NCBI GenBank assembly: GCA_002401345.1
Contig: NVSU01000005.1
Location: forward strand, 1-54,153
From: Candidatus Wolfebacteria bacterium
GTDB taxonomy: Bacteria; Patescibacteriota; Minisyncoccia; Phycocordibacterales; NVSU01
Reading direction: 5' to 3'
DNA length: 54,153 nucleotides
Part shown: positions 4,798-49,884 of the stretch, one piece after another
How the letters are laid out: each line of letters opens with the position of its first letter
How positions within the stretch are numbered: position 1 is the stretch's first letter
The notes under the pieces: generated by a model
The model's input: only the letters and a program-made list of their open reading frames with translations
What the model was told of the DNA's origin: nothing
Database searches by the model: none
Made by a program: the position numbers and the translations under genes

Positions 4798-5286
4798 TTA
4801 TGTGCATTCTTGAATTACTATACTTCTATGTGTTTCATCAACATGAGTTAAGCGTACTTGTATGTGATCATCTGGTAAAATTCCCTTCGCATTGACTGGC
4901 CATTCAATAAAAATTAAATTATCTTTATTACCCATAATTTCCTCCCAACCAAGCGCGAGAAGTTCTTCTTCTTTCTCTATTCTATATGCGTCTATGTGAA
5001 TAAGCTGAGTATAGGGAACATTAATAGTCTTTCCATTAGTTGCTTCAAACGACTTCTGTTCTATAGGATATTTTCTCTCTATAACAAATGTTGGACTGGC
5101 AACCCCTTCTTGAATACCGAGCATGTGAGCCATTTCCTTTGTAAGTGTTGTCTTACCAGAACCCAGGTCTCCATATAGACCAACAACGCGCGCCTTATCT
5201 TTGGCTCGCGGTGTAACCATACTATATGAGAGAATTGCAGATGCTATATCTTTTATCTGAGTTATATCAAAAAATTTTTCTGCCAT
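4798..5286 (-). CDS. tsaE: tRNA t6A37 biosynthesis protein TsaE (YjeE-type P-loop ATPase)
   Basis: GLYGDLGSGKTTLTKEMAHMLGI, SPTFVI and HIDAYRI motifs. Start set at MAEKFF (5286). Confidence 0.8.
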   Translation of the reverse strand: MAEKFFDITQIKDIASAILSYSMVTPRAKDKARVVGLYGDLGSGKTTLTKEMAHMLGIQEGVASPTFVIERKYPIEQKSFEATNGKTINVPYTQLIHIDAYRIEKEEELLALGWEEIMGNKDNLIFIEWPVNAKGILPDDHIQVRLTHVDETHRSIVIQECT

Positions 5287-5395: not shown

Positions 5396-7915
5396 TTAGT
5401 CAATTTGGATGTCTTTTCCACCCGGATTTTGAGCATTAAATGCACTAAATGGGTCTAGAGATTCATCTTCCATAGATTCATCAATCATGTCATCGGATAC
5501 TTTTGTTTTCTTAAGATTAAGCTTGTAGTATCTATGACCAAGTACAGAGAGTCCACCGAGTACTACGAATAGAATAATCCATTCAACTACTGAGTTAGGG
5601 AATCCAAAGTCTCCAAAAATTGCTGCTGCTGAAAGAAGGCTACCGTCAGTATCATCGTGCTTCACGTTTTGTAATGCATATGATATTACGTCTTCTCCTG
5701 CTTCAGAATCTGGGTTAGTGAATACAAGAATTCCTGTTGTAATAAGAACCTCTTGTCTTCGTGCCTTTCCAAGCACTTCTCCTTGAATTTTAATTTCTCC
5801 TGTGTCTCCTGATTTAAATTCTCCAATTTCAAGTGTGATTGTATTATCAGATCGTGAGAATGATCCTTCACTTGTCTTTTCAAAACTTATTTCTTCAGGA
5901 AGGATGATTCGAAGTATTGCATCATCTATAGTCTTATTGCTTACGTTCTTGTATTCAATAGTATAGTTTACAGTGTCTCCTACCTCTACGTCATCAAATA
6001 TAGTTCTAAGTGAAAGTGACGCAAGAGATGAATTTCCAGGATCTTGAATTGTTACCACAGGATTTGTTCCTGCCTTAAGTGTTCTAAAGACCACTGTTGT
6101 ATCTCCTGTATCGCTTACGTTTGCATTTGATGCTGACGCTCGGAAGTAATATATTGTATTCGGTTGAAGACCTCTAATTGTGTGAACAAATGACTGAGAT
6201 CCTGTTGATCCAATTGAGTGATCGTGTGTTCGATTATCAACATCTATAGTTTGTCCATAGTTAAACCATGCTACTGTCTCTGCGTTTCCTCCTATAAGAA
6301 TTATTCCGCTTAACTTAGCACTTGTACTTGTGATTGAAGTTGCAACTGTTGTAAATGCTGCAAGTTCATCTGAAGTACCTGTAGTTATAAGACTTCGTAC
6401 GCTTCCACATGTCTGATCAATAGTGTTTTGAGCACATGCTCGGAAGAAATATTCAGTTCCACTTGAAAGACCTGTGAGTGTAAATGGTGATGCGATACTT
6501 ACTGATCCATTACCAAGGTTTTTGTTTCCTACTATAGTGTTCAAATTACTTGAACTTATTCCATACTCATACCACATGTTTGTAGGTGTTCCGTTTGGAA
6601 TAATAGATGAATTCAATATTGCTGAATTAGAAGTAATACTTGAAGCTGGGTTTGTAGCTACAACTGGTGCAAGATCTGAAACCACTGCACTTGTTGTAAA
6701 ACTCAGACTAGATCCACTCGTAGATCCTAAGTCATTTGCTGCAAGAATTCTAAATGTATATGAAGTATCTGAATCAAGGTTACTTACTGTATATCCTGAG
6801 AGAGTAATAAGAGATGTTCCATTTCCAATAGCTTCTGTAAATACAACATTTCCATTAAGTTCGTATGACACAGTTGTAGATGATCCATTAGCATTTACTT
6901 GACCATTCAATACTGCTGAATTTAAAGTAATATCTGAGGCGCTATTTGTAATAGCTGTTGGTATCTCAGCTGAGATTACCTCTGCTGGTAGTGTAGTAAA
7001 ACTAAATCTAGAGCTTGCTACCGTATCAACACTATTAGAAATATGCGCTTTGTAGTAGTAGGTTGTATTTGGAGTAAGTCCGGTAATTGTTTTTTCATAT
7101 TCCGCACTACCTAGAATTGCGTCTATAGAAGTAGATGCTCCTCCTGCAATAGAAGGTGATGTTCCATATTCAAACCAAATGCTTGATTTTACTCCCTTTG
7201 TATCAAATGAAGTAACAAGTGTTGCATCTGTTGCTCCAATATTAGTTGCTGACATTATATCAAGAGTTGGACTTTCAGTATTATTAACATCAGGTGATCC
7301 GCTTACTTCAAATCGCAATACCATTGATCCTTGCTTACAAGAAAGGTTTGAACCTGCACATGAATATTGTGACCTTATAGTTCCAATATTAATTCCACTT
7401 GTGAATATATCTGATTCACTTTGTCCTGCGGGCAATGCAGATGGACTTGTAGATTGGTTTGGATACCACTTTAGGGATCCGTCTACAAATGTAAGATTCT
7501 CAGCATTTGAAATATTTACTGATACTGAGTTCTCAGCTGGCGCTGCAGTCGTTGAATTATCAGCAGTAACTGATCCTGAGAATGAATGAGATGAAGCTTG
7601 CGCACTTGAAGGTGCATCAAGTTGAATAACAGTGTTGAGTGCATCCCAACTACCTGAGTTGTGATACCACACTCGTACATCAATCTCATCACCTGGATCT
7701 GCTGATAGTGATGTTGACCATCCACTGTTCTTAGTTACATTTAACACTTGAACTGTATCTGGATCTGAAGGATCAGAGTTAAATATAGTTACCACTTGCG
7801 CATGTGCCTGTGGTACTGCAAGTAATCCGAATCCAATAAGAATTGACCCTAAAATAATCGCCTTTTTTAGAGCTCGTATTGCATTATATGCAATTGTATT
7901 TGTAATATTTTTCAT
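5396..7915 (-). CDS. Large cell-surface protein with repeated FN3-like modules, a DUF11-like domain and a C-terminal TM anchor
   Basis: 839 aa. N-terminal signal/TM. At least four repeats ending in FN3-like strands (TPNTTYYYKAH, DTSYTFRILA, GTEYFFRACA, PNTIYYFRASA). VGDTVNYTIEYKN resembles the DUF11 repeat. Hydrophobic anchor WIILFVVLGGLSVLG lies near the C-terminus. Confidence 0.65.
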   Translation of the reverse strand: MKNITNTIAYNAIRALKKAIILGSILIGFGLLAVPQAHAQVVTIFNSDPSDPDTVQVLNVTKNSGWSTSLSADPGDEIDVRVWYHNSGSWDALNTVIQLDAPSSAQASSHSFSGSVTADNSTTAAPAENSVSVNISNAENLTFVDGSLKWYPNQSTSPSALPAGQSESDIFTSGINIGTIRSQYSCAGSNLSCKQGSMVLRFEVSGSPDVNNTESPTLDIMSATNIGATDATLVTSFDTKGVKSSIWFEYGTSPSIAGGASTSIDAILGSAEYEKTITGLTPNTTYYYKAHISNSVDTVASSRFSFTTLPAEVISAEIPTAITNSASDITLNSAVLNGQVNANGSSTTVSYELNGNVVFTEAIGNGTSLITLSGYTVSNLDSDTSYTFRILAANDLGSTSGSSLSFTTSAVVSDLAPVVATNPASSITSNSAILNSSIIPNGTPTNMWYEYGISSSNLNTIVGNKNLGNGSVSIASPFTLTGLSSGTEYFFRACAQNTIDQTCGSVRSLITTGTSDELAAFTTVATSITSTSAKLSGIILIGGNAETVAWFNYGQTIDVDNRTHDHSIGSTGSQSFVHTIRGLQPNTIYYFRASASNANVSDTGDTTVVFRTLKAGTNPVVTIQDPGNSSLASLSLRTIFDDVEVGDTVNYTIEYKNVSNKTIDDAILRIILPEEISFEKTSEGSFSRSDNTITLEIGEFKSGDTGEIKIQGEVLGKARRQEVLITTGILVFTNPDSEAGEDVISYALQNVKHDDTDGSLLSAAAIFGDFGFPNSVVEWIILFVVLGGLSVLGHRYYKLNLKKTKVSDDMIDESMEDESLDPFSAFNAQNPGGKDIQID

Positions 7916-10064: not shown

Positions 10065-10088
10065 GTCTGAATGTTTTGATTCAGTAAT

Positions 10089-14519: not shown

Positions 14520-14618
14520 CCCCGCCCCCTATGCTCGTTGAATTGATTTCATAGTAGGTAGGGTTTTATAATAACGAATATTATTTTATTGGTTTAATAA
14601 AAAGCTTAGAGGGCGGGG
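14520..14618. repeat. Gene-less relic of the GIY-YIG cassette
   Basis: Bounded by ccccgcccccta (14520-14531) and tagagggcgggg (14607-14618), the same inverted repeat that bounds the intact GIY-YIG gene at 16005-16253. Retains ccccgccccctATGCT followed by an early stop. Confidence 0.7.
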
Positions 14619-16004: not shown

Positions 16005-16253
16005 CCCCGCCCCCTATGCTTTATGTTATACGTTTATATATTAAAATGGAAAAGTACTGGCGATTTATACATAGGATATACAAATGATCTCAAACGAAGA
16101 ATGAGGGAGCATAATAATGAAGCGTCTTGTACTATAATTTATTATGAAGCCTATCAAACTGAGGATTTAGCTCGAGATCGAGAGAGGAAGCTTAAACACT
16201 ATGGTAGCTCTTGGAGAGCTCTCGGAAAGCGAATAACTTCCTAGGGGGCGGGG
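16005..16253 (+). mobile_element. GIY-YIG mini-cassette bounded by a 12-nt GC inverted repeat
   Basis: ccccgcccccta (16005-16016) and tagggggcgggg (16242-16253). The right repeat contains the TAG stop of the enclosed gene. Confidence 0.7.
16023..16244 (+). CDS. GIY-YIG nuclease family protein (UPF0213/YhbQ-like)
   Basis: 73 aa. YVYIL..GDLYIGYTNDLKRRMREH matches the GIY-(X10)-YIG plus R..H core. Confidence 0.8.
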   Translation: MLYVYILKWKSTGDLYIGYTNDLKRRMREHNNEASCTIIYYEAYQTEDLARDRERKLKHYGSSWRALGKRITS

Positions 16254-17673: not shown

Positions 17674-17793
17674 ATGAATCCCGTTAGAGATCACAATGTT
17701 ATGAAAGCGGAATATAGAATTTTAAAAGAAATAATTTACAATAATTACGATAGGTATGAGTTACACGGAAATGTAACCATTTCCTATCTCTAA
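17674..17793 (+). CDS. 39-codon small ORF (MNPV cassette peptide) immediately upstream of ruvC
   Basis: MNPVRDHNVMKAEYRILKEIIYNNYDRYELHGNVTISYL. A same-length homolog lies at 45904-46023. TAA stop, then CGGG, then the ruvC ATG. Confidence 0.4.
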   Translation: MNPVRDHNVMKAEYRILKEIIYNNYDRYELHGNVTISYL

Positions 17794-17799
17794 CGGGAT
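17678..17799 (+). repeat. Inverted repeats of the MNPV cassette (atcccgttagagat / atctctaacgggat)
   Basis: Perfect 14-nt inverted repeat at 17678-17691 and 17786-17799. The right arm overlaps the first two nt of the ruvC start codon. Internal perfect hairpin ggaaatg-taac-catttcc. Confidence 0.8.
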
Positions 17800-18322
17800 G
17801 AAAATATTATCTATAGATCCAGGATATGAGCGCGTTGGTATTGCTATTCTTGAAAAGAATATCAATACGCCAGTTGCTAGAGGCCAGAAGCCAGAGGCTT
17901 TGATATATTCCAGTTGTTTTAAAACGGATGCCGCACTTCTTCTTACTGAACGCATTTCACTCATTGGAAATGAGATTAATCGTGTAATAAAAAAATATTC
18001 ACCAGATGCACTCGCTATAGAAACTCTTTTCTTCACAGTTAATAAAAAAACTGCAATGGGTGTAGCTGAAGCACGTGGAGTAATTATGTATGAATGTTCA
18101 CAGGCTCATCTAAAAATATTTGAATATACTCCTCTTCAAATTAAGATCGCTGTTACAAGTTATGGAAAATCAACAAAAGATCAGGTGATAATGATGACAA
18201 AAAAATTGATCACTATGGATGAATCTATCACTTCAGATGATGAAATCGATGCCATTGCTATTGGATTAACCTGTTTTGCCCACGAAAAATCACTTACCTC
18301 AGCACCAAATTTTACAAAATAA
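17798..18322 (+). CDS. ruvC: Crossover junction endodeoxyribonuclease RuvC
   Basis: MKILSIDPGYERVGIAILE start and the ..DAIAIGL.. catalytic-Asp context. Confidence 0.85.
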   Translation: MKILSIDPGYERVGIAILEKNINTPVARGQKPEALIYSSCFKTDAALLLTERISLIGNEINRVIKKYSPDALAIETLFFTVNKKTAMGVAEARGVIMYECSQAHLKIFEYTPLQIKIAVTSYGKSTKDQVIMMTKKLITMDESITSDDEIDAIAIGLTCFAHEKSLTSAPNFTK

Positions 18323-36179: not shown

Positions 36180-36189
36180 AAATATTTTA

Positions 36190-36320
36190 GCATCTAGCAC
36201 CTAGGCACTAGCATCTAGTTTCGTTATTAATAAATGTAACATTTTTATAATTTTATTATTGATTTCTTTCATATTGAATTTAATTTTAAGGCTAGTTGCC
36301 AGTCGCTAGTGCCTAGGTGC
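36190..36320. repeat. Decayed four-helix-bundle cassette (inverted-repeat-bounded relic)
   Basis: Perfect 16-nt inverted repeat gcacctaggcactagc (36197-36212) / gctagtgcctaggtgc (36305-36320). The interior keeps a 23-codon remnant MKEINNKIIKMLHLLITKLDASA, which resembles the last helix of four-helix-bundle proteins. Confidence 0.65.
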
Positions 36321-36325
36321 TTTTA

Positions 36326-36967
36326 CTATTCTTCAAACTTTACAGTCCCAGTAGGATCACCGGGGTTAAATGTCTTATAAAAGAGCTCCACAACCTCTTC
36401 TGTGCCCAATTGAACACTTCGCACACCCATTCGTGCCAGTCCACCCTGGATGACCCCCACTCGTTGTTCGAGTTGTGATTGTTTTTCTGCAAAATCAATT
36501 CCCTCTTGTACCTTTGTTTTTTTCTTAGATGAAAAAATACTTGTGAGTCCCTTAAGTCCTGAAGCGGGACCAAGTGCGGGTGCAGTATAGGGAACGACTA
36601 TAATAAAACTTTTTGTCATAATATTACGCGACTCTGTGAAGTTTCTAATGAATTGTATATATTCACGAGTTTGAATTTTTAACAAAGGTTCTACCTGCTC
36701 TTTCATTCTATTTTCAAGAAGTATGATGTAGGGGCGGATGTCGAGTTTTCGTGATTGAACAACTATTTGTGTTGAGAAATCCAATGAATTCAAAAATGAC
36801 TGGAATTGACGAATTGTTGCATTCTGTTCATCAAGGGACTTTAATGAAAGATTTATTGATGAAGCCATGAGAACTGCTCGGAGTCCCCCATCTTTTAAAA
36901 CCACAATCCCATTTCGGATTTCTTTTATTGGGACAAAATTTTGAGTTGCTCGTGCTGCAAGTGCCAT
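36326..36967 (-). CDS. Protein resembling the N-terminal segment of Gram-positive (Tn916 Orf16 / CD1110-type) VirB4
   Basis: TQNFVPIKEIRNGIVVLKDGGLRAVLMASSINLSLKSLDEQ..FQSFLNSLDFSTQIVVQS... and ..MGVRSVQLGTEEVVELFYKTFNP follow the pattern I recall for the first ~220 aa of that family. No TM, no NTPase motif. Confidence 0.5.
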   Translation of the reverse strand: MALAARATQNFVPIKEIRNGIVVLKDGGLRAVLMASSINLSLKSLDEQNATIRQFQSFLNSLDFSTQIVVQSRKLDIRPYIILLENRMKEQVEPLLKIQTREYIQFIRNFTESRNIMTKSFIIVVPYTAPALGPASGLKGLTSIFSSKKKTKVQEGIDFAEKQSQLEQRVGVIQGGLARMGVRSVQLGTEEVVELFYKTFNPGDPTGTVKFEE

Positions 36968-37413: not shown

Positions 37414-37827
37414 TTCTTTTTCTTTCATATCCAACACATCAAGACTCCATGAAATATCTTTTAATCTGCCTTCAGAGAGCCGAGGAATATACGCTTTCTC
37501 TGATATTTCCTTTTCTTCTGGTGTAGGTTGTGTCGCAGCCTTCTTTTTTTTGCTCTTTTTCCATATATAGAGTTTTCCCTGAAAAAGGTATTTTACGTAG
37601 GCTTCAAGAATGTATATAAACGGTTTATTGTTTATCTTATAGAACGTAAGTGCCAAAGAAAGTGATACCACAGGAATGATTATAAGTATGGCAATAAAAT
37701 TTGGAAGTACTTTGAATGCAACAAAGGATATTCCCGCACCCCCAATCAAATAGACAAACTGTTTGAACGTAAATGGTCCAAAGATTTTGTCTTCTATATC
37801 AATAAATTGTGGAACTCTAAATCTCAT
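37408..37827 (-). CDS. PrgI-family (VirB3-like) T4SS membrane protein
   Basis: VPQFIDIEDKIFGPFTFKQFVYLIGGAGISFVAF followed by a second TM helix. Confidence 0.7.
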   Translation of the reverse strand: MRFRVPQFIDIEDKIFGPFTFKQFVYLIGGAGISFVAFKVLPNFIAILIIIPVVSLSLALTFYKINNKPFIYILEAYVKYLFQGKLYIWKKSKKKKAATQPTPEEKEISEKAYIPRLSEGRLKDISWSLDVLDMKEKEQ

Positions 37828-37840
37828 ATATTAGCCTCTC

Positions 37841-38005
37841 GCACCTAGGCACTGGCACCTAGCATGCCTACGACAGGTAGCATTAATTTATTAATAAACG
37901 AATTTAACATTTTTATAATTTTATTGTTGATTTCTTTCATATTTAATATGTACATTGCAAATTTTTAATGATTGAGCTAGTTGCTAGGAGTTAATGACTA
38001 GGTGC
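37841..38005. repeat. Second decayed four-helix-bundle cassette
   Basis: gcacctaggcactggcacctagc / gctagttgctaggagttaatgactaggtgc flanks. A 40-nt core (aacatttttataattttattgttgatttctttcatatt) is nearly identical to 36239-36277. Remnant ORF MKEINNKIIKMLNSFINKLMLPVVGMLGASA. Confidence 0.65.
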
Positions 38006-38010
38006 TTTTA

Positions 38011-38802
38011 CTATTCTTGAATTCTTTCTCTGTAGGGATCTTGCGTTGGTCCTGTGTCTGAATAATCATGAGTCTCTCTTTTTAGTGTAAACGGCTCTTT
38101 TAATTTTTTCTCGACAATACTCTCTTTTGGAGTTGCTAATAGGGGTTCTTCCGTATGTGTTGGTATCTCTTTTTTTAAATCTTGTTGTAATGGAACGGTC
38201 GTCTGTTGTGGTAGTGGAACATATGAATTTTTCTTTGATTGTATTTTGACTCCAGAGGATTCCAATATTTTTTCATCTTTTGTGTCTATGGTCGGTATAT
38301 TTTTTTGAAGAGTAATGTCCTCTTGTGTCTCAGTCGCAACAATATCTATACCCGTTTTTTTTAATACCCCAATGTCCTTTGAAGGGAGATGCGATGGAGT
38401 AGTTGAAGGGAAATCTTCTTCCAATAATCGTTCAATATCTTCATCAGTGATATCAATTTCTGGTTTTTTCTGTGGAACTTCTGGTTCACCATGGAGATGT
38501 TTAAGTGCACTTCTAATTTTTTCAAATACTTGTGTGTTTATGTCATTAACAATCTGATCAACCTGTGTTGAAGAGAGGGATAGTGTACGCTTAAGATTTT
38601 TTGCAAAGTCTTTTGGATGGGACAGGCCGAGAATTATTAAATTACTTTCATAGACAAGTTTTCCAATATCAGAAACTGTAAGAGTGTGTTTCTTTCCTAT
38701 AGAGAGGATTTTTTCTCCCACACTTGCATCAAGAACCGCAGATCGTACATCATCTGGGAGCTTGCTAAATTTTTCAGTTATTTCTTTGCTTGAAAGTTTC
38801 AT
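38011..38802 (-). CDS. Hypothetical protein (no signal peptide)
   Basis: 263 aa. The N-domain ..ILSIGKKHTLTVSDIGKLVYESNLIILGLSHPKDFAKNL.. and C-terminal DPYRE resemble a domain I recall from other CPR hypothetical proteins. Confidence 0.45.
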   Translation of the reverse strand: MKLSSKEITEKFSKLPDDVRSAVLDASVGEKILSIGKKHTLTVSDIGKLVYESNLIILGLSHPKDFAKNLKRTLSLSSTQVDQIVNDINTQVFEKIRSALKHLHGEPEVPQKKPEIDITDEDIERLLEEDFPSTTPSHLPSKDIGVLKKTGIDIVATETQEDITLQKNIPTIDTKDEKILESSGVKIQSKKNSYVPLPQQTTVPLQQDLKKEIPTHTEEPLLATPKESIVEKKLKEPFTLKRETHDYSDTGPTQDPYRERIQE

Positions 38803-45020: not shown

Positions 45021-45899
45021 CTAAGAATTGATTCCTTTTGTGAGACATTTCCAGTCGTTCAAAGTAAGATTTTCAGCCCGAGAATTATCTGGTAATGCAC
45101 ATGCACTCAGAATTTCTTTTTTATCTGTCTGAATGGATGACTTTTCGGTCTCATTAAAAAGAGGTTTAATGTTGCTCATGAGTAATTTTCGTTTATGTGA
45201 GAATCCAGCCTTCAGAACTTTAAAAAAATCTGTTTCGTTTATGGTATCAAAAAAATCTCGTGATATTTTGCGTACAGAAAGTATAGCTGAGTCTACTTTT
45301 GGGGCAGGAGAGAATAGTCGAGCAGGTACTTTTTCTACATACGTTGGCATTCCATATGCCTTTACACTTATTGAGAGAATGCTTTCCCTAAATCGCCTTT
45401 CGGGCGATCGGGCGACTGCGCCCGCTGGGCGCGGTTTAGCCTTTTTTCTTCGTTTTTCTATCCCAACAATTCGACGGGCAACTTCTTTTTGAACAAGTAT
45501 GGTAATAATTTCTGGTTGATGTTCTGTTTCGAGGAATTTTTTTAATATTGCCCCTGTAATGTAATACGGTATATTGGCCACTATTTTATAGGGGTTTTTA
45601 TCCAAATCAGCACTTTTAGGTTCAAAATCGAGAATATCTCCCTCGAGTAGGGTAAGTGTCCCTTTGTCTATCTCTTTTTTGAACTTTTCTTTTAAATATT
45701 CGACTAGTCTAGTGTCTTTTTCAATTGCGATAATTTTTTTTGCATGTGTCAGAAGTTTTTCTGTGAGGATTCCCTTCCCGGGACCGATTTCTAACACAAT
45801 ATCGTTCTCATTTATATTAGATGCATTCAACATAGACATCACAACTTTCTGTGATTTTAGGAAATTTTGTCCAAAAGTTTTGTTTGGTCTGAGGTTCAT
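45021..45899 (-). CDS. rsmA: 16S rRNA (adenine1518/1519-N6)-dimethyltransferase RsmA/KsgA with an internal insertion
   Basis: FGQNFL, VLEIGPGKGILTEKL, VANIPYYITG, VQKEVARRI, PKVDSAIL. An extra basic segment KRRKKAKPRPAGAVARSPERRFRES follows VQKEVARRIVG. Confidence 0.9.
   Translation of the reverse strand: MNLRPNKTFGQNFLKSQKVVMSMLNASNINENDIVLEIGPGKGILTEKLLTHAKKIIAIEKDTRLVEYLKEKFKKEIDKGTLTLLEGDILDFEPKSADLDKNPYKIVANIPYYITGAILKKFLETEHQPEIITILVQKEVARRIVGIEKRRKKAKPRPAGAVARSPERRFRESILSISVKAYGMPTYVEKVPARLFSPAPKVDSAILSVRKISRDFFDTINETDFFKVLKAGFSHKRKLLMSNIKPLFNETEKSSIQTDKKEILSACALPDNSRAENLTLNDWKCLTKGINS
45392..45441. repeat. GC-rich multi-hairpin insertion inside rsmA
   Basis: atcgcc-tttcg-ggcgat and cgggcg-actg-cgcccg (alternative gcgccc-gct-gggcgc). 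36 of 50 nt are G/C by my count, in an AT-rich gene. Confidence 0.7.
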
Positions 45900-46023
45900 C
45901 CCGTTAGAGATAGGAAATGATTACATTTCCGTGTAACTCATTCCTATGATCATTATTGTTAATTATTTTGTCTACTACTCTTCCTCCCATATACATAACA
46001 TTGCGATCTCTAACGGGATTCAT
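45898..46023 (-). repeat. Second copy of the MNPV cassette, abutting the rsmA start codon
   Basis: atcccgttagagat (45898-45911) / atctctaacgggat (46006-46019). On the minus strand ...TAA CGGG ATG(rsmA). Internal hairpin ggaaatg-taat-catttcc. Confidence 0.8.
45904..46023 (-). CDS. 39-codon small ORF (MNPV cassette peptide) immediately upstream of rsmA
   Basis: MNPVRDRNVMYMGGRVVDKIINNNDHRNELHGNVIISYL. Same length and same termini as the ruvC-linked copy. The longer 64-aa track ORF is probably an artefactual extension. Confidence 0.4.
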   Translation of the reverse strand: MNPVRDRNVMYMGGRVVDKIINNNDHRNELHGNVIISYL

Positions 46024-47544: not shown

Positions 47545-47576
47545 TAAAAAAATCCCTCTCACGAGGGATTTTTTTA
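47545..47576. terminator. Bidirectional terminator between convergent genes
   Basis: aatccctc-tcac-gagggatt flanked by A- and T-runs. Confidence 0.7.
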
Positions 47577-47579
47577 TAT

Positions 47580-49118
47580 CTAACGGGGTCGGTATTGGAG
47601 TGCTTCTAGGATATGAGTGTCATGTATAGACTCACTTGTATCAAGGTCCGCGATGGTTTGGGCGAGTTTTAATACGCGATGGTATCCTCGTGGTGAGAGA
47701 TTAAGTTTTTTCGCACTCTCGTTCAGTAGTGTTTTAACATCGTCACTGAGAGATATGGTTGATTGAAGATCTTTCACGTTCATTTCACTATTTTTTTGAA
47801 TGTTTCGTTCAAGTTTTTCAAATCGTTTCCTTTGAATGTCTCGCGCATCCTCAACTCTCTTTTTTATGACCTTTGTTTCATCTCCACTTTTACTCTTTGA
47901 GCTCAATGTATCAAAATCTATATTTTCTACTTGTACCCACATATCAATTCTATCCATAATCGGTCCTGAAACTTTTCTTTGATATCGCGCGAGGTCTGAC
48001 GGAGTACAAATACATTCCTTTGCATTTGTTCTGTAGTTACCACACGGACAGGGATTCATCGCTGCAATTAAAATAAAGTTTGAAGGAAAGTGAGCTGTTC
48101 CCTTTGCACGAGAGATCACTACAATATTATCTTCAAGTGGTTGTCGCAGAGATTCTATTGCCCGACGTTCAAACTCAGGGAACTCATCTAAGAAAAGCAC
48201 ACCTCTGTGTGCCAGGGTCACTTCTCCGGGTTTTGGATATGTTCCACCACCTATTAACGACACATATGAAGAGGTATGGTGAGGAGATCTGAAAGGTGGA
48301 TCTGTAACGAGTCCATCTTTAATTGCCCCTGCAATAGAGTGAATTCCAGTAATCTCTAGAATATCATCGTGTGAGAGTTTGGGAAGAATTGAAGAAAACA
48401 CACGTGCAAGCATTGTTTTTCCTGTCCCTGGTGGTCCTGACATTGCAATATTATGTCCTCCGGCCGCAGCAATCTCGAGTCCGCGTTTAACTGACGCTTG
48501 TCCTTTGATATCAGAAAAGTCGATGGTGTATTTTTGATCTTTGTACTTAATTTTAGTTTTGGGGAGTGCTTCAAGTGAAAAATCTTCTCCTTCATTTTCA
48601 ATAAGGTGGTCAATAATTTCTTTTAAGGTAGAGACTCCGTATATTGTTATTCCATCAACGAGTGCAGCCTCTTGAGCATTTTCTTTGGGAAGATAGAGTT
48701 CTTTAAACCCATTACGTTTTGCTTCTTGAGCTATTGGAAGTGCACCACGAATAGGTCGCAGTTCCCCATTGAGTGAGAGTTCACCAATGAACAATTTCTC
48801 TTCTGGATTAAATGAAATATATTTTTCTGAGAGCAAATATCCGAGTGCGATGGATAAATCAAAATATGAACCCTCCTTTTTAATCTCAGCTGGCGAAAGA
48901 GACACAATAATTTTTTGATATTGTTGTTTTGGCGGTTTATGGCCAGTATTTTTAATTGCTGATGACACACGGTCACGTGCTTCTTCAACTGCTTTATCAG
49001 GAAGACCAACTATAGAGAATGCATGAAGTGTATTTTTAGATACATCTACTTCAACGTCAATGATTTGACCCTTTAATGCGTTTGTTTGAGCTGAATATAC
49101 CCTTGAGAAGTTACTCAT
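47580..49118 (-). CDS. comM: YifB/ComM-family Mg-chelatase-like AAA+ ATPase
   Basis: Lon-like N-domain, Walker A MSGPPGTGKTM, VLFLDEFPEF, C-terminal ..ILEALQYR. Confidence 0.9.
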   Translation of the reverse strand: MSNFSRVYSAQTNALKGQIIDVEVDVSKNTLHAFSIVGLPDKAVEEARDRVSSAIKNTGHKPPKQQYQKIIVSLSPAEIKKEGSYFDLSIALGYLLSEKYISFNPEEKLFIGELSLNGELRPIRGALPIAQEAKRNGFKELYLPKENAQEAALVDGITIYGVSTLKEIIDHLIENEGEDFSLEALPKTKIKYKDQKYTIDFSDIKGQASVKRGLEIAAAGGHNIAMSGPPGTGKTMLARVFSSILPKLSHDDILEITGIHSIAGAIKDGLVTDPPFRSPHHTSSYVSLIGGGTYPKPGEVTLAHRGVLFLDEFPEFERRAIESLRQPLEDNIVVISRAKGTAHFPSNFILIAAMNPCPCGNYRTNAKECICTPSDLARYQRKVSGPIMDRIDMWVQVENIDFDTLSSKSKSGDETKVIKKRVEDARDIQRKRFEKLERNIQKNSEMNVKDLQSTISLSDDVKTLLNESAKKLNLSPRGYHRVLKLAQTIADLDTSESIHDTHILEALQYRPR

Positions 49119-49141
49119 ATAGTTATTTTACCACTCTTTTT
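49071..49141. repeat. Direct repeat DR1 (comM 5' end plus upstream 23 nt)
   Basis: 71 nt, repeated at 49771-49841 exactly 700 nt away, with 5 substitutions and no indel. Confidence 0.9.
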
Positions 49142-49191
49142 TGTGCATAAAAAATAAATTGAAATTGATTTGAAAGACATATTGGTTAGTT

Positions 49192-49722: not shown

Positions 49723-49818
49723 CTAACCTCTTATATTAAAAATGAAGGAGGTCCAACCTCCTTCATTGCTCTTTAATGCGTTTGTTTGAGCCGAATAAAC
49801 CCGAGAAAAGTTACTCAT
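49723..49818 (-). pseudogene. Truncated duplicate of the comM 5' end
   Basis: MSNFSRVYSAQTNALK is identical to ComM residues 1-16. It then runs into the terminator hairpin and stops (31 codons). Confidence 0.65.
49741..49768 (-). terminator. Rho-independent terminator after the comM fragment
   Basis: aatgaaggaggt-ccaa-cctccttcatt. Followed by TTTTT on the minus strand. Confidence 0.65.
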
Positions 49819-49841
49819 ATAGTTATTTTACCACTCTTTTT
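49771..49841. repeat. Direct repeat DR2
   Basis: See DR1. All 5 differences fall at synonymous positions of the comM reading frame. Confidence 0.9.
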
Positions 49842-49852
49842 GTTTTTAAAAT

Positions 49853-49884
49853 AAAAAAAGCTCAACAAGAATTGTTGAGCTTTT
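49853..49884 (-). terminator. Rho-independent terminator of the dksA-like gene
   Basis: agctcaacaa-gaa-ttgttgagct with an A-run on the plus strand. Confidence 0.7.

Follow-up and report, generated by a model that had tools for sequence, protein, structure and literature searches.

Two unrelated genes of a Candidatus Wolfebacteria genome, rsmA/ksgA (16S rRNA dimethyltransferase) and ruvC, are preceded by the same unit of about 120 bp, the last base of which is the first base of the gene. This raises the question of what the unit is and how it came to lie exactly there. Both copies are located on one stretch of 54,153 nucleotides, which is referred to here as the window. The unit is most probably a non-autonomous copy, 120 bp long and MITE-like (MITE standing for miniature inverted-repeat transposable element), of a family of ultra-small mobile elements whose full-length form carries a gene for a GIY-YIG nuclease.

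Two copies of one element at rsmA and ruvC

The copies are situated at 45895-46023 on the minus strand (rsmA) and at 17674-17802 on the plus strand (ruvC), separated by 28,092 nt. Upon pairwise alignment they showed 84% identity over 130 nt with zero indels, and each is bracketed by a duplicated ATGAA. The window contains exactly four occurrences of the 14-nt inverted repeat ATCCCGTTAGAGAT / ATCTCTAACGGGAT, whereas 0.39 hits are expected by chance even at two or fewer mismatches; the observed count was reached in 0 of 100 shuffles. As the outermost pair of this repeat is part of the duplicated TGAA, the element's own terminal inverted repeat measures 13 bp, YCCCGTTAGAGAT, and is exact in both copies. 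On the minus strand the rsmA copy (46023-45895) reads ATGAAT-CCCGTTAGAGAT...GGAAATG-TAAT-CATTTCC-T-ATCTCTAACGGG-ATGAA, or, in codons, ATG (46023-46021) AAT CCC GTT AGA GAT ... TCC TAT CTC TAA (45906-45904) CGGG ATG (45899-45897). The features of both copies are as follows.

46021..46023, minus strand: original rsmA ATG, now opening a 39-codon upstream frame; the native promoter and 5' untranslated region (5' UTR) are kept ahead of it
46019..46022, minus strand: left target-site duplication TGAA
46006..46018, minus strand: left terminal inverted repeat T+CCCGTTAGAGAT (helix 1, 5' arm)
45931..46005, minus strand: variable interior of 75 nt, matching the position of the spacer and nuclease codons 1-23 in full-length elements
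45913..45930, minus strand: helix 2 hairpin GGAAATG-TAAT-CATTTCC, 1 nt from the right repeat
45899..45911, minus strand: right terminal inverted repeat ATCTCTAACGGG+A (helix 1, 3' arm), holding the TAA at 45904-45906
45895..45898, minus strand: right target-site duplication TGAA, equal to bases 2-5 of rsmA
45904..46023, minus strand: upstream reading frame of 39 codons and TAA, ending 4 nt before the rsmA ATG; not a conserved peptide
45021..45899, minus strand: host gene rsmA/ksgA, intact from the rebuilt ATG
17675..17802, plus strand: ruvC copy, with left TGAA 17675-17678, left repeat 17679-17691, 75-nt interior 17692-17766, hairpin 17767-17784 (loop TAAC), right repeat 17786-17798 and right TGAA 17799-17802
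17674-17793, plus strand: upstream frame of the ruvC copy
17798-18322, plus strand: ruvC
17678-17691 (plus), 17786-17799 (minus), 45898-45911 (plus) and 46006-46019 (minus): exact matches of the 14-nt repeat

The common traits listed in the original prediction (14-nt repeats, a hairpin with a TAAT or TAAC loop, 39 codons and a 4-nt spacer) are all present in the sequence. The Pfam matches of rsmA and ruvC, together with the copy coordinates, also confirm host genes that are unrelated, 28 kb apart and on opposite strands.

As single-stranded DNA or RNA, the window copies fold into exactly two helices, the repeat stem (helix 1) and the hairpin (helix 2), with z-scores of -3 to -5. In a scan of the window with Rfam 15 no family reached the gathering threshold, and a tRNA scan of the window found none. 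Promoter consensus scans inside the element gave nothing above chance and no terminator was found there; TATCTC, 7 nt upstream of the rebuilt ATG, lacks the conserved final T. A -10-like box, TGcTATACT, can be read on the minus strand about 25 nt upstream of the original rsmA ATG.

A family of short copies with target-site duplications

One genome per species was scanned for CCCGTTAGAGAT-N(80-110)-ATCTCTAACGGG. The repeat pair was found at at least 116 loci in Patescibacteria, Omnitrophota, Planctomycetota, Elusimicrobia, Ignavibacteria and others, the patescibacterial hosts being Saccharibacteria, Paceibacterota and Nomura-, Kaiser-, Lloyd- and Yanofskybacteria. The host genes are unrelated (rsmA, ruvC, lepA, frr, VWA and pilins). 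A total of 119-120 short copies was analysed.

The base just outside each 12-mer was complementary in 116 of 119 copies, as T...A in 66 and C...G in 50, which gives a repeat of 13 bp. The next four bases form a direct repeat that is exact on both sides in 66 of the 119, against 10.5 (maximum 22) in shuffled pairs, in agreement with the target-site preference that had been suspected earlier. Its consensus is TNNA, with TGAA the commonest; TGGA, TGTA, TGAG, TGCG, TAAA, TTTA and TCAA also agree from left to right. With these repeats, the duplication and the many loci, the proposal of a mobile repeat unit is borne out.

A hairpin of 5-11 bp (typically 7 bp, with a loop of 3-4 nt) is present in 114 of 120 short copies and lies 1 nt from one repeat in 93; its arms come in 69 distinct sequences. 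The interior keeps its length (median 75, interquartile range 73-77) and not its sequence. The window copies thus show the traits of a MITE: inverted repeats, a fixed 4-bp duplication, 120 bp without a functional gene, and multiple copies with a longer coding relative.

At one locus (L113, 5896-5999) the repeat pair encloses a tRNA-Ala(CGC) gene (5909-5982, minus strand) in place of the usual interior. The window also contains a solitary degenerate end, ACCCCGTTAGATAT, at 47576-47589 on the minus strand, which lacks a partner; by chance one would expect about 0.4 hits of this kind. Overlapping with the stop codon is that of a ComM/Mg-chelatase-like gene (47580-49118, minus strand), and a hairpin followed by a T run adjoins the solitary end, which may be a relic or a coincidence.

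The full-length element encodes a GIY-YIG nuclease

The full-length form measures about 279 bp and consists of the 13-bp inverted repeats, the 4-bp duplication and one gene, for a GIY-YIG (UPF0213/Slx1-like) nuclease of 86 amino acids (aa). In locus L098 a 278-nt version (2565-2842) was found whose interior is a small GIY-YIG open reading frame (ORF; PF01541, E 1.5e-16), and tblastn with the nuclease gave relatives in L016, L003, L019 and the window itself. Further full-length examples are those of L003 and L117 (1480-1758). From 80 metagenome loci, 67 non-redundant full-length units were obtained. The core is 273-284 bp long in 65 of them, an ATG follows the left repeat after 4-9 nt in 62, and in all 67 the 86-aa nuclease is the only gene between the repeats. 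In about 0.9 Mb of flanking DNA no repeat pair was found around a transposase-sized gene; the finds were limited to short variants of 190 and 278 nt and to solitary ends, most of them degenerate.

The nuclease gene lacks a stop codon of its own: the right repeat doubles as its last five codons, CTA TCT CTA ACG GGR (L-S-L-T-G), after which the duplication supplies the stop (TGA or TAA), which overlaps the host ATG in the T...A type (ATGA). The ORFs of L003 and L117 cross the right repeat in this way (...TTC CTA TCT CTA ACG GGA TGA, with the TGA overlapping the host ATG), and in the gene calls of L117-L123 the nuclease and the host gene overlap by 4 nt. Among the 22 full-length units of the T...A type, 16 lie at the ATG of a long ORF and 20 have the nuclease stop codon directly after the right repeat; a spacer of 6 or 9 nt places the host start codon in frame with the nuclease in 12. 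The other 45 units are of the C...G type, and in 26 of these the flank gives an immediate TAA or TGA.

A protein search returned more than 4,584 clusters at 90% identity, mostly of exactly 86 aa and 74-91% identical to the query, with Omnitrophota, Planctomycetota, Elusimicrobiota, WOR-3, several Patescibacteria lineages and Flavobacteriales as sources. A library clustered at 50% identity yielded 2,598 clusters at E ≤1e-10 and 11,560 at E ≤1e-3, and a scan of 2.9 million viral contigs gave no relative. In the databases these proteins are labelled only 'GIY-YIG nuclease family protein' or 'excinuclease ABC subunit C'. Sixteen retrieved nucleases end in or continue through ...KNRLKRFL[S/A/F]LTG, and some of the called proteins begin with ...DPVRDKKQMFYTY, which is the left repeat read as protein and thus a false N-terminal extension (P0123 and P0125, for example).

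Residues Y3, Y5, T17, G18, R24, R26, H30, E62 and N76 are invariant in 16 diverse members, and Y16 is present in at least 90%. The AF2 model (pLDDT 82.7, elements E-E-H-E-H-H) has the GIY-YIG beta-beta-alpha-beta-alpha fold. Its closest match in Foldseek was 1ZG2, followed by Slx1 (7CQ2, 4XLG and 6SEI) and the I-TevI catalytic domain; UvrC-N was also matched. By sequence the nearest solved relatives are the uncharacterised UPF0213 proteins 1ZG2 (E 3e-9) and 1YWL.

In L098 (1780-3520, minus strand) three neighbouring pseudopilin genes each hold a copy inside the leader peptide, at GGN-TTY-ACN, which encodes the G|FT cleavage motif; the duplication is TTCA or TTTA. A short copy there stays in frame over 44 codons, and in a full-length copy the nuclease is joined in frame to the pseudopilin, so that prepilin peptidase could release both parts. 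In this frame the left repeat reads T-P-L-E-I, resembling the G-F-T-L-I-E motif.

A second GIY-YIG cassette is present in the window at 16005-16253 on the plus strand, with an intact ORF of 73 aa (16023-16244; PF01541, E 2e-10). It is bounded by another 12-nt inverted repeat, CCCCGCCCCCTA / TAGGGGGCGGGG, and its stop codon, TAG, lies within the right repeat. A copy without a gene, about 99 bp long and with one mismatch in the repeat, was found at 14520-14618; no clear target duplication was seen. A nuclease gene accompanied by short copies of its own is therefore a design that recurs, here with another end sequence.

Two covarying helices and the probable origin of the short copies

Covariation was tested on an alignment of 65 full-length units for the 13-bp repeat stem (helix 1) and an 8-bp helix 2. 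The latter pairs ACGGAAACGC (codons ~24-27, L-R-K-R-F) with GCGTTTCC (codons ~79-82, K-R-F-L), and its 3' arm ends 1 nt from the right repeat. Pairing was present in 98.9% of the cells, compared with about 47% in slid controls. Double-sided changes numbered 109 against 25.8 expected, which was reached by 0 of 500 shuffles. Five pairs in helix 1 and four of the eight in helix 2 are compensated, including third-codon positions at which the non-coding left arm has changed in step.

The distance from the left repeat to the 5' arm of the hairpin has a median of 75 nt (73-77) in the short copies versus 77 nt (76-78) in full-length units, and in both forms the 5' arm of helix 2 is preceded by a TACGGA motif. 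The simplest reading is that the short copies are deletion derivatives, in which a 4-nt loop has replaced the ~160 nt that separate the arms of helix 2. The window copies fit such a deletion with their 75-nt interior, their GGAAATG/CATTTCC arms and the 1 nt that remains to the repeat.

The element rebuilds the start codon of its host gene

Both host proteins are genuine (RsmA, PF00398, E 1e-51; RuvC, PF02075, E 9e-33), and the Pfam matches begin at residues 3-5, which identifies the right-hand ATG as the true N-terminus. The RsmA relatives start in the same register, 4-10 residues ahead of KKSLGQNFL. In the rsmA copy the terminal A (45899) serves as the first base of the rebuilt ATG. In the T...A subfamily, mostly found in Patescibacteria, the terminal A of the element and the duplicated TG form a new ATG (insertion point A|TGNN), and the host ATG with its upstream signals remains to the left of the element. 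In the C...G sister subfamily the terminal G gives a rebuilt GTG codon. The left flank of the short copies mostly keeps the original start codon, usually ATG and in a few cases GTG or TTG; the first base of the right-hand start codon therefore comes from the element and not from the duplication. This supports the earlier suggestion that the element donates the start-codon context, by a terminal A (or G) that rebuilds ATG (or GTG) with the duplicated TG.

Comparison with empty sites had been set beforehand as the test that could refute this, namely by showing that the downstream genes normally start elsewhere. They do not. An rsmA orthologue without the element (L210) reads ...AAAGGA|ATGAAT, with the same ATG, and lepA is empty in L050 (...ATATT|ATGGAT) and filled in L088, at 70% aa identity and again with the same ATG; the RsmA relatives agree. 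The ATGAA start common to rsmA, ruvC and an ICMT-like gene, which had been taken as a hint, carries no information, since 22 of the 45 genes in the window start with ATGAA.

The last base is at the same time the A of a start ATG, opening an ORF of 60 codons or more, in 59 of the 66 short copies of the T...A type. Two of the remaining seven are cut by the end of the locus and two abut long ORFs with ATA or ACT as first codon. The reconstructed empty site is conserved at ATGRA only, without a Shine-Dalgarno signal. The 857 TGAA sites in the window comprise 22 gene starts, 69 intergenic sites and 766 coding sites. Random insertion at TGAA followed by purging from coding sequence would place about one quarter of the copies at gene starts, compared with about nine tenths observed, so local sequence cannot explain the placement. 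In hosts that use Shine-Dalgarno sequences, about ten C...G copies separate GGAG(G) from the ATG; were the element looped out by the stem, the joint spacing would come to 7-15 nt, and the repeat stem may bring the flanks together in the mRNA.

Several orthologous pairs and neighbouring repeats were observed at such sites. The frr orthologue of L025 (~225, minus strand) carries a decayed remnant of the right repeat, CTTCTAACGGG|ATG, where L065 has an intact short copy (4989-5106), which shows that old copies erode in place at the same gene start. The patescibacterial loci L002 (2394-2516) and L037 (4711-4828) have orthologous hosts, 79% identical in aa sequence, with a short element at the same ATGGA start and the hairpin at opposite ends, suggesting either that the repeats recombined and so inverted the interior or that two insertions took place independently. 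Upstream of two RsmA homologues, P0003 (L211, 370-480) and P0004 (L212, 200-270), the called N-terminal extensions cross unrelated G+C-rich palindromic repeats, located just upstream of the real ATGAA or ATGGC start. This suggests that other small repeats also settle at the start of rsmA and mislead gene callers.

The 39-codon upstream frame

The original prediction described the unit as a 39-codon 'MNPV' coding cassette, which could not be upheld. The two window frames differ at 21 nt in 14 codons, none of these 14 changes is synonymous, and translation of the host ATG together with the duplication and the left repeat is all it takes to give 'MNPVRD'. Among the 69 family members located at start codons, frame length varies from 0 to 42 codons, and M-x-P-V-R-D is all that their peptides have in common. 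The frame reaches the right repeat in nine of 47 T...A copies, all nine in the TAA frame, compared with 3.2 ± 1.6 for shuffled interiors (P = 0.0035); the TAA frame class is also the commonest, with 23 of the 47. There is thus some sign that an open frame ending beside the host ATG is favoured.

Copy number in metagenomes

In two metagenome runs holding this genome, read depth over the element was 144-488 versus 16-20 on the flanks (15-30x), and the contigs break there. Between 27 and 37 contigs with matching ends were found in those runs, many as deep as the host contig, which agrees with a copy number in the tens for this genome or its community. No RNA run was found to contain the window. 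Insertion polymorphism, in the form of reads skipping the whole element, was not seen in the runs, a weak absence given that these are contig data.

A model for movement and persistence

The nuclease is the sole gene of the unit and is conserved across phyla, which makes it the likely mobility enzyme; it would move the short copies in trans. It probably recognises folded DNA, composed of the repeat stem and helix 2, rather than sequence alone. The precisely covarying features that the short copies keep, both helices and their spacing, fit a cis-acting structure read by an enzyme. Slx1, its nearest characterised fold relative, is structure-specific, an analogy that may serve as a lead in the same direction. 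Since GIY-YIG enzymes act by hydrolysis of DNA, host ligase or repair would be needed for joining and for the 4-bp duplication.

Expression of rsmA and ruvC would depend on the promoter and 5' UTR upstream of the left ATG, with ribosomes starting at the original ATG. On traversing the element they would melt the repeat stem, in which the A of the host ATG is otherwise bound, then terminate at the right repeat's TAA and resume 4 nt further on, at the rebuilt ATG. Some other route of expression would be required for copies with early stops. Several circumstances may favour persistence at start codons. The full-length form, with no promoter or ribosome-binding site of its own, would borrow the translation signals of the host. 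The host gene would survive, and imprecise deletion of the element would kill that gene in streamlined genomes.

Taken together, we lean towards a new superfamily of DNA transposable elements, possibly with the smallest autonomous member (~279 bp), in which an 86-residue GIY-YIG mobility enzyme reads folded DNA, the element parasitises translation and the window copies are its MITEs.

A number of results weigh against this interpretation or parts of it. We know of no GIY-YIG enzyme that performs strand transfer, all being hydrolytic, which leaves the 4-bp duplication without an explanation; an exact duplication is absent in about 45% of the copies, chiefly in the C...G subfamily. No full-length copy with these repeats is present in the 54-kb window, nor was one at least 80% identical to the Patescibacteria copy L185 found in four metagenome runs (X1-X4) holding this genome. 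With nhmmer, neither the 5' nor the middle part of the short-copy interior showed homology to the nuclease gene. The deletion model consequently rests on the geometry, the TACGGA motif and the shared stem; scattered matches between interior and nuclease in an earlier pairwise alignment were not relied on. Mismatches in the hairpin are G-T in 17 cases and A-C in 10, counts that do not separate an action as RNA from one as DNA. The upstream frame stops early in 38 of the 47 copies, so termination-reinitiation cannot be the general route of host-gene expression, and 23% of randomly mutated window copies kept the frame open in a simulation, so that its openness in the two window copies taken alone is not significant.

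Alternative explanations

The units could be ordinary MITEs moved by a DDE transposase (IS1380/piggyBac-like or IS5-like) encoded elsewhere, the GIY-YIG gene being a passenger or an independent selfish gene. A 4-bp duplication, ends beginning with CCC and a subterminal palindrome beside the repeat would all suit such an origin, as would the lack of any known joining activity among GIY-YIG enzymes. In piggyBac the terminal repeat is followed by a palindrome after 1-3 nt. CCCGTTAGAGATA moreover resembles the piggyBac end, CCCTAGAAAGATA, the duplication of which is TTAA, a likeness that served as a lead and not as a test. An IS1380/piggyBac-type MITE was in fact the working idea until the GIY-YIG gene was found between the same ends. 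We now consider it unlikely. The nuclease is the only gene in 67 of 67 full-length units of nearly constant length, and the ~0.9 Mb of flanking DNA held no transposase-sized gene within a repeat pair. Its frame is moreover fused to the right repeat, with a stop taken from the duplication, and the gene covaries with the repeat and with a stem inside its coding region. The 74-91% identity to the query across phyla is likewise what would be expected of the element's own mobility gene. A classical homing endonuclease, spreading between alleles by break repair and leaving short copies as relics that decayed in place and never moved in their short form, has a lower probability still. GIY-YIG enzymes are best known in that role, and orthologous hosts share the insertion site in L002/L037, in L156/L178 and, as a remnant, at frr in L025. 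Homing, however, makes no target-site duplications, and ATGRA is far too short for a homing site. The nuclease consists of the catalytic core without a DNA-binding domain. The window copies have the same deletion architecture at 84% identity although they stand at unrelated genes 28 kb apart, and the depth indicates tens of such copies in the sample.

Slightly less probable than homing is a native structured cis-regulatory RNA (riboswitch, thermometer or attenuator) that is not mobile DNA. The terminal stem with its hairpin, the RNA fold z-scores, the covariation of both helices and the 5' leader position exactly at the start codon would be expected of such an RNA; no Rfam family reached threshold, however, and the interior has neither conserved loops nor conserved sequence. 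The 4-bp duplications, the protein-coding full-length form, the unrelated host genes and the orthologues without the element argue against it as well. A secondary regulatory effect of the mobile element on its host gene is possible. The lowest probability of all was given to a real peptide of 39 residues (a leader, small protein or toxin) ahead of rsmA and ruvC. Both copies are open for 39 codons, from an ATG with native signals to 4 nt before the host ATG, but the 14 differing codons without a synonymous change, the unrelated peptides of the 69 members and the openness of 23% of random mutants leave little room for it.

Relation to known elements

Bacterial MITEs such as Correia/NEMIS in Neisseria, RUP in pneumococcus and MITEAba12 resemble the short copies in their length (100-150 bp), inverted repeats, short duplication, multiple copies and lack of genes. 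They, too, have a longer relative with the same ends and often lie beside genes, altering or preserving expression. The present element differs in its parent, which is a 279-bp GIY-YIG unit and not an insertion sequence with a DDE transposase, and in its exact placement at start codons, the ATG rebuilt by the end base, the covarying hairpin and the fixed 75-nt spacing. From piggyBac/IS1380, which it resembles in its 4-bp T..A-type duplication, CCC ends and a palindrome shortly after the repeat, it differs in having no DDE transposase between the ends and in size (279 bp versus 1.6-2.5 kb); the similarity is a resemblance only.

The GIY-YIG homing genes of T4-like phages (I-TevI, Seg and Mob) are likewise selfish units with a sole GIY-YIG product and wide horizontal spread, and the GIY-YIG core of the element nuclease folds like I-TevI. 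Here, in contrast, there is no DNA-binding domain, intron or intein context or long (>14 bp) recognition site, inverted repeats and duplications are found at many unrelated genes, and the 2.9 million viral contigs held no relative. The best solved match in both sequence and fold is the UPF0213/YhbQ protein 1ZG2. To our knowledge, UPF0213 proteins have no known role and have not been reported in repeat-bounded units. Slx1 cuts branched and stem-loop DNA and needs Slx4 and a RING domain; its substrate preference fits an element defined by two covarying helices.

REP/REPIN-RAYT systems and IS200/IS605 share with the element short structured repeats, recognition of hairpins and a small nuclease gene acting in trans (proposed here). 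They use HUH (Y1) enzymes, however, make no duplication, lack such terminal repeats and have hairpin motifs such as GTAG. A REP/REPIN-RAYT assignment was rejected, as the element is partnered by a GIY-YIG gene, has a duplication and varies freely in its hairpin sequence. Rickettsia palindromic elements (RPE) are also small palindromic repeats tolerated in or at genes of reduced genomes, comparable to the in-frame copies of L098. RPE have no known cognate nuclease gene and are usually translated within the host protein, whereas the window copies lie outside RsmA and RuvC. GTTAGAG and TCTAAC, as read from the sequence, match the attC consensus (RYYYAAC ... GTTRRRY) at 6 of 7 positions. An integron attC site was rejected on account of the 4-bp duplication and of the ten Pfam-scanned window ORFs, flanking genes included, which contained no integrase.

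A search of the full-text literature, including the exact repeat sequences, gave no description of the element type, with most subscription journals outside its coverage; the type seems not to have been described previously. In one report (PMC12455944) GIY-YIG proteins are merely listed among the genes transferred from Patescibacteria. As far as is known from the literature, no link has been made between the GIY-YIG class and elements that have terminal repeats and target-site duplications.

The findings point to a large mobile-element family that crosses phyla and has a GIY-YIG nuclease as its mobility gene. They also suggest a route by which selfish DNA may survive in minimal genomes, by sitting on the start codon, rebuilding the ATG and using the translation signals of the host. 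For annotation, the consequences are labels such as 'excinuclease ABC subunit C' or 'GIY-YIG nuclease family protein' and false N-terminal extensions through the repeat, and Patescibacteria assemblies break at these repeats. If its activity is confirmed, the very small nuclease, apparently a reader of DNA structure, may be of use as a reagent.

Other repeats in the window

A 44-nt promoter-like motif, with TTGACA-16-TATAAT on the minus strand (a 12/12 match at 17635-17608), is repeated at 10074, 11763, 12674 and 17593, upstream of genes with divergent transcription. Direct repeats were found at 36182-36336 / 37826-38021 and at 49071-49158 / 49771-49858; they are 79-97% identical, lie upstream of neighbouring small genes and are unrelated to the start-codon element of rsmA and ruvC.

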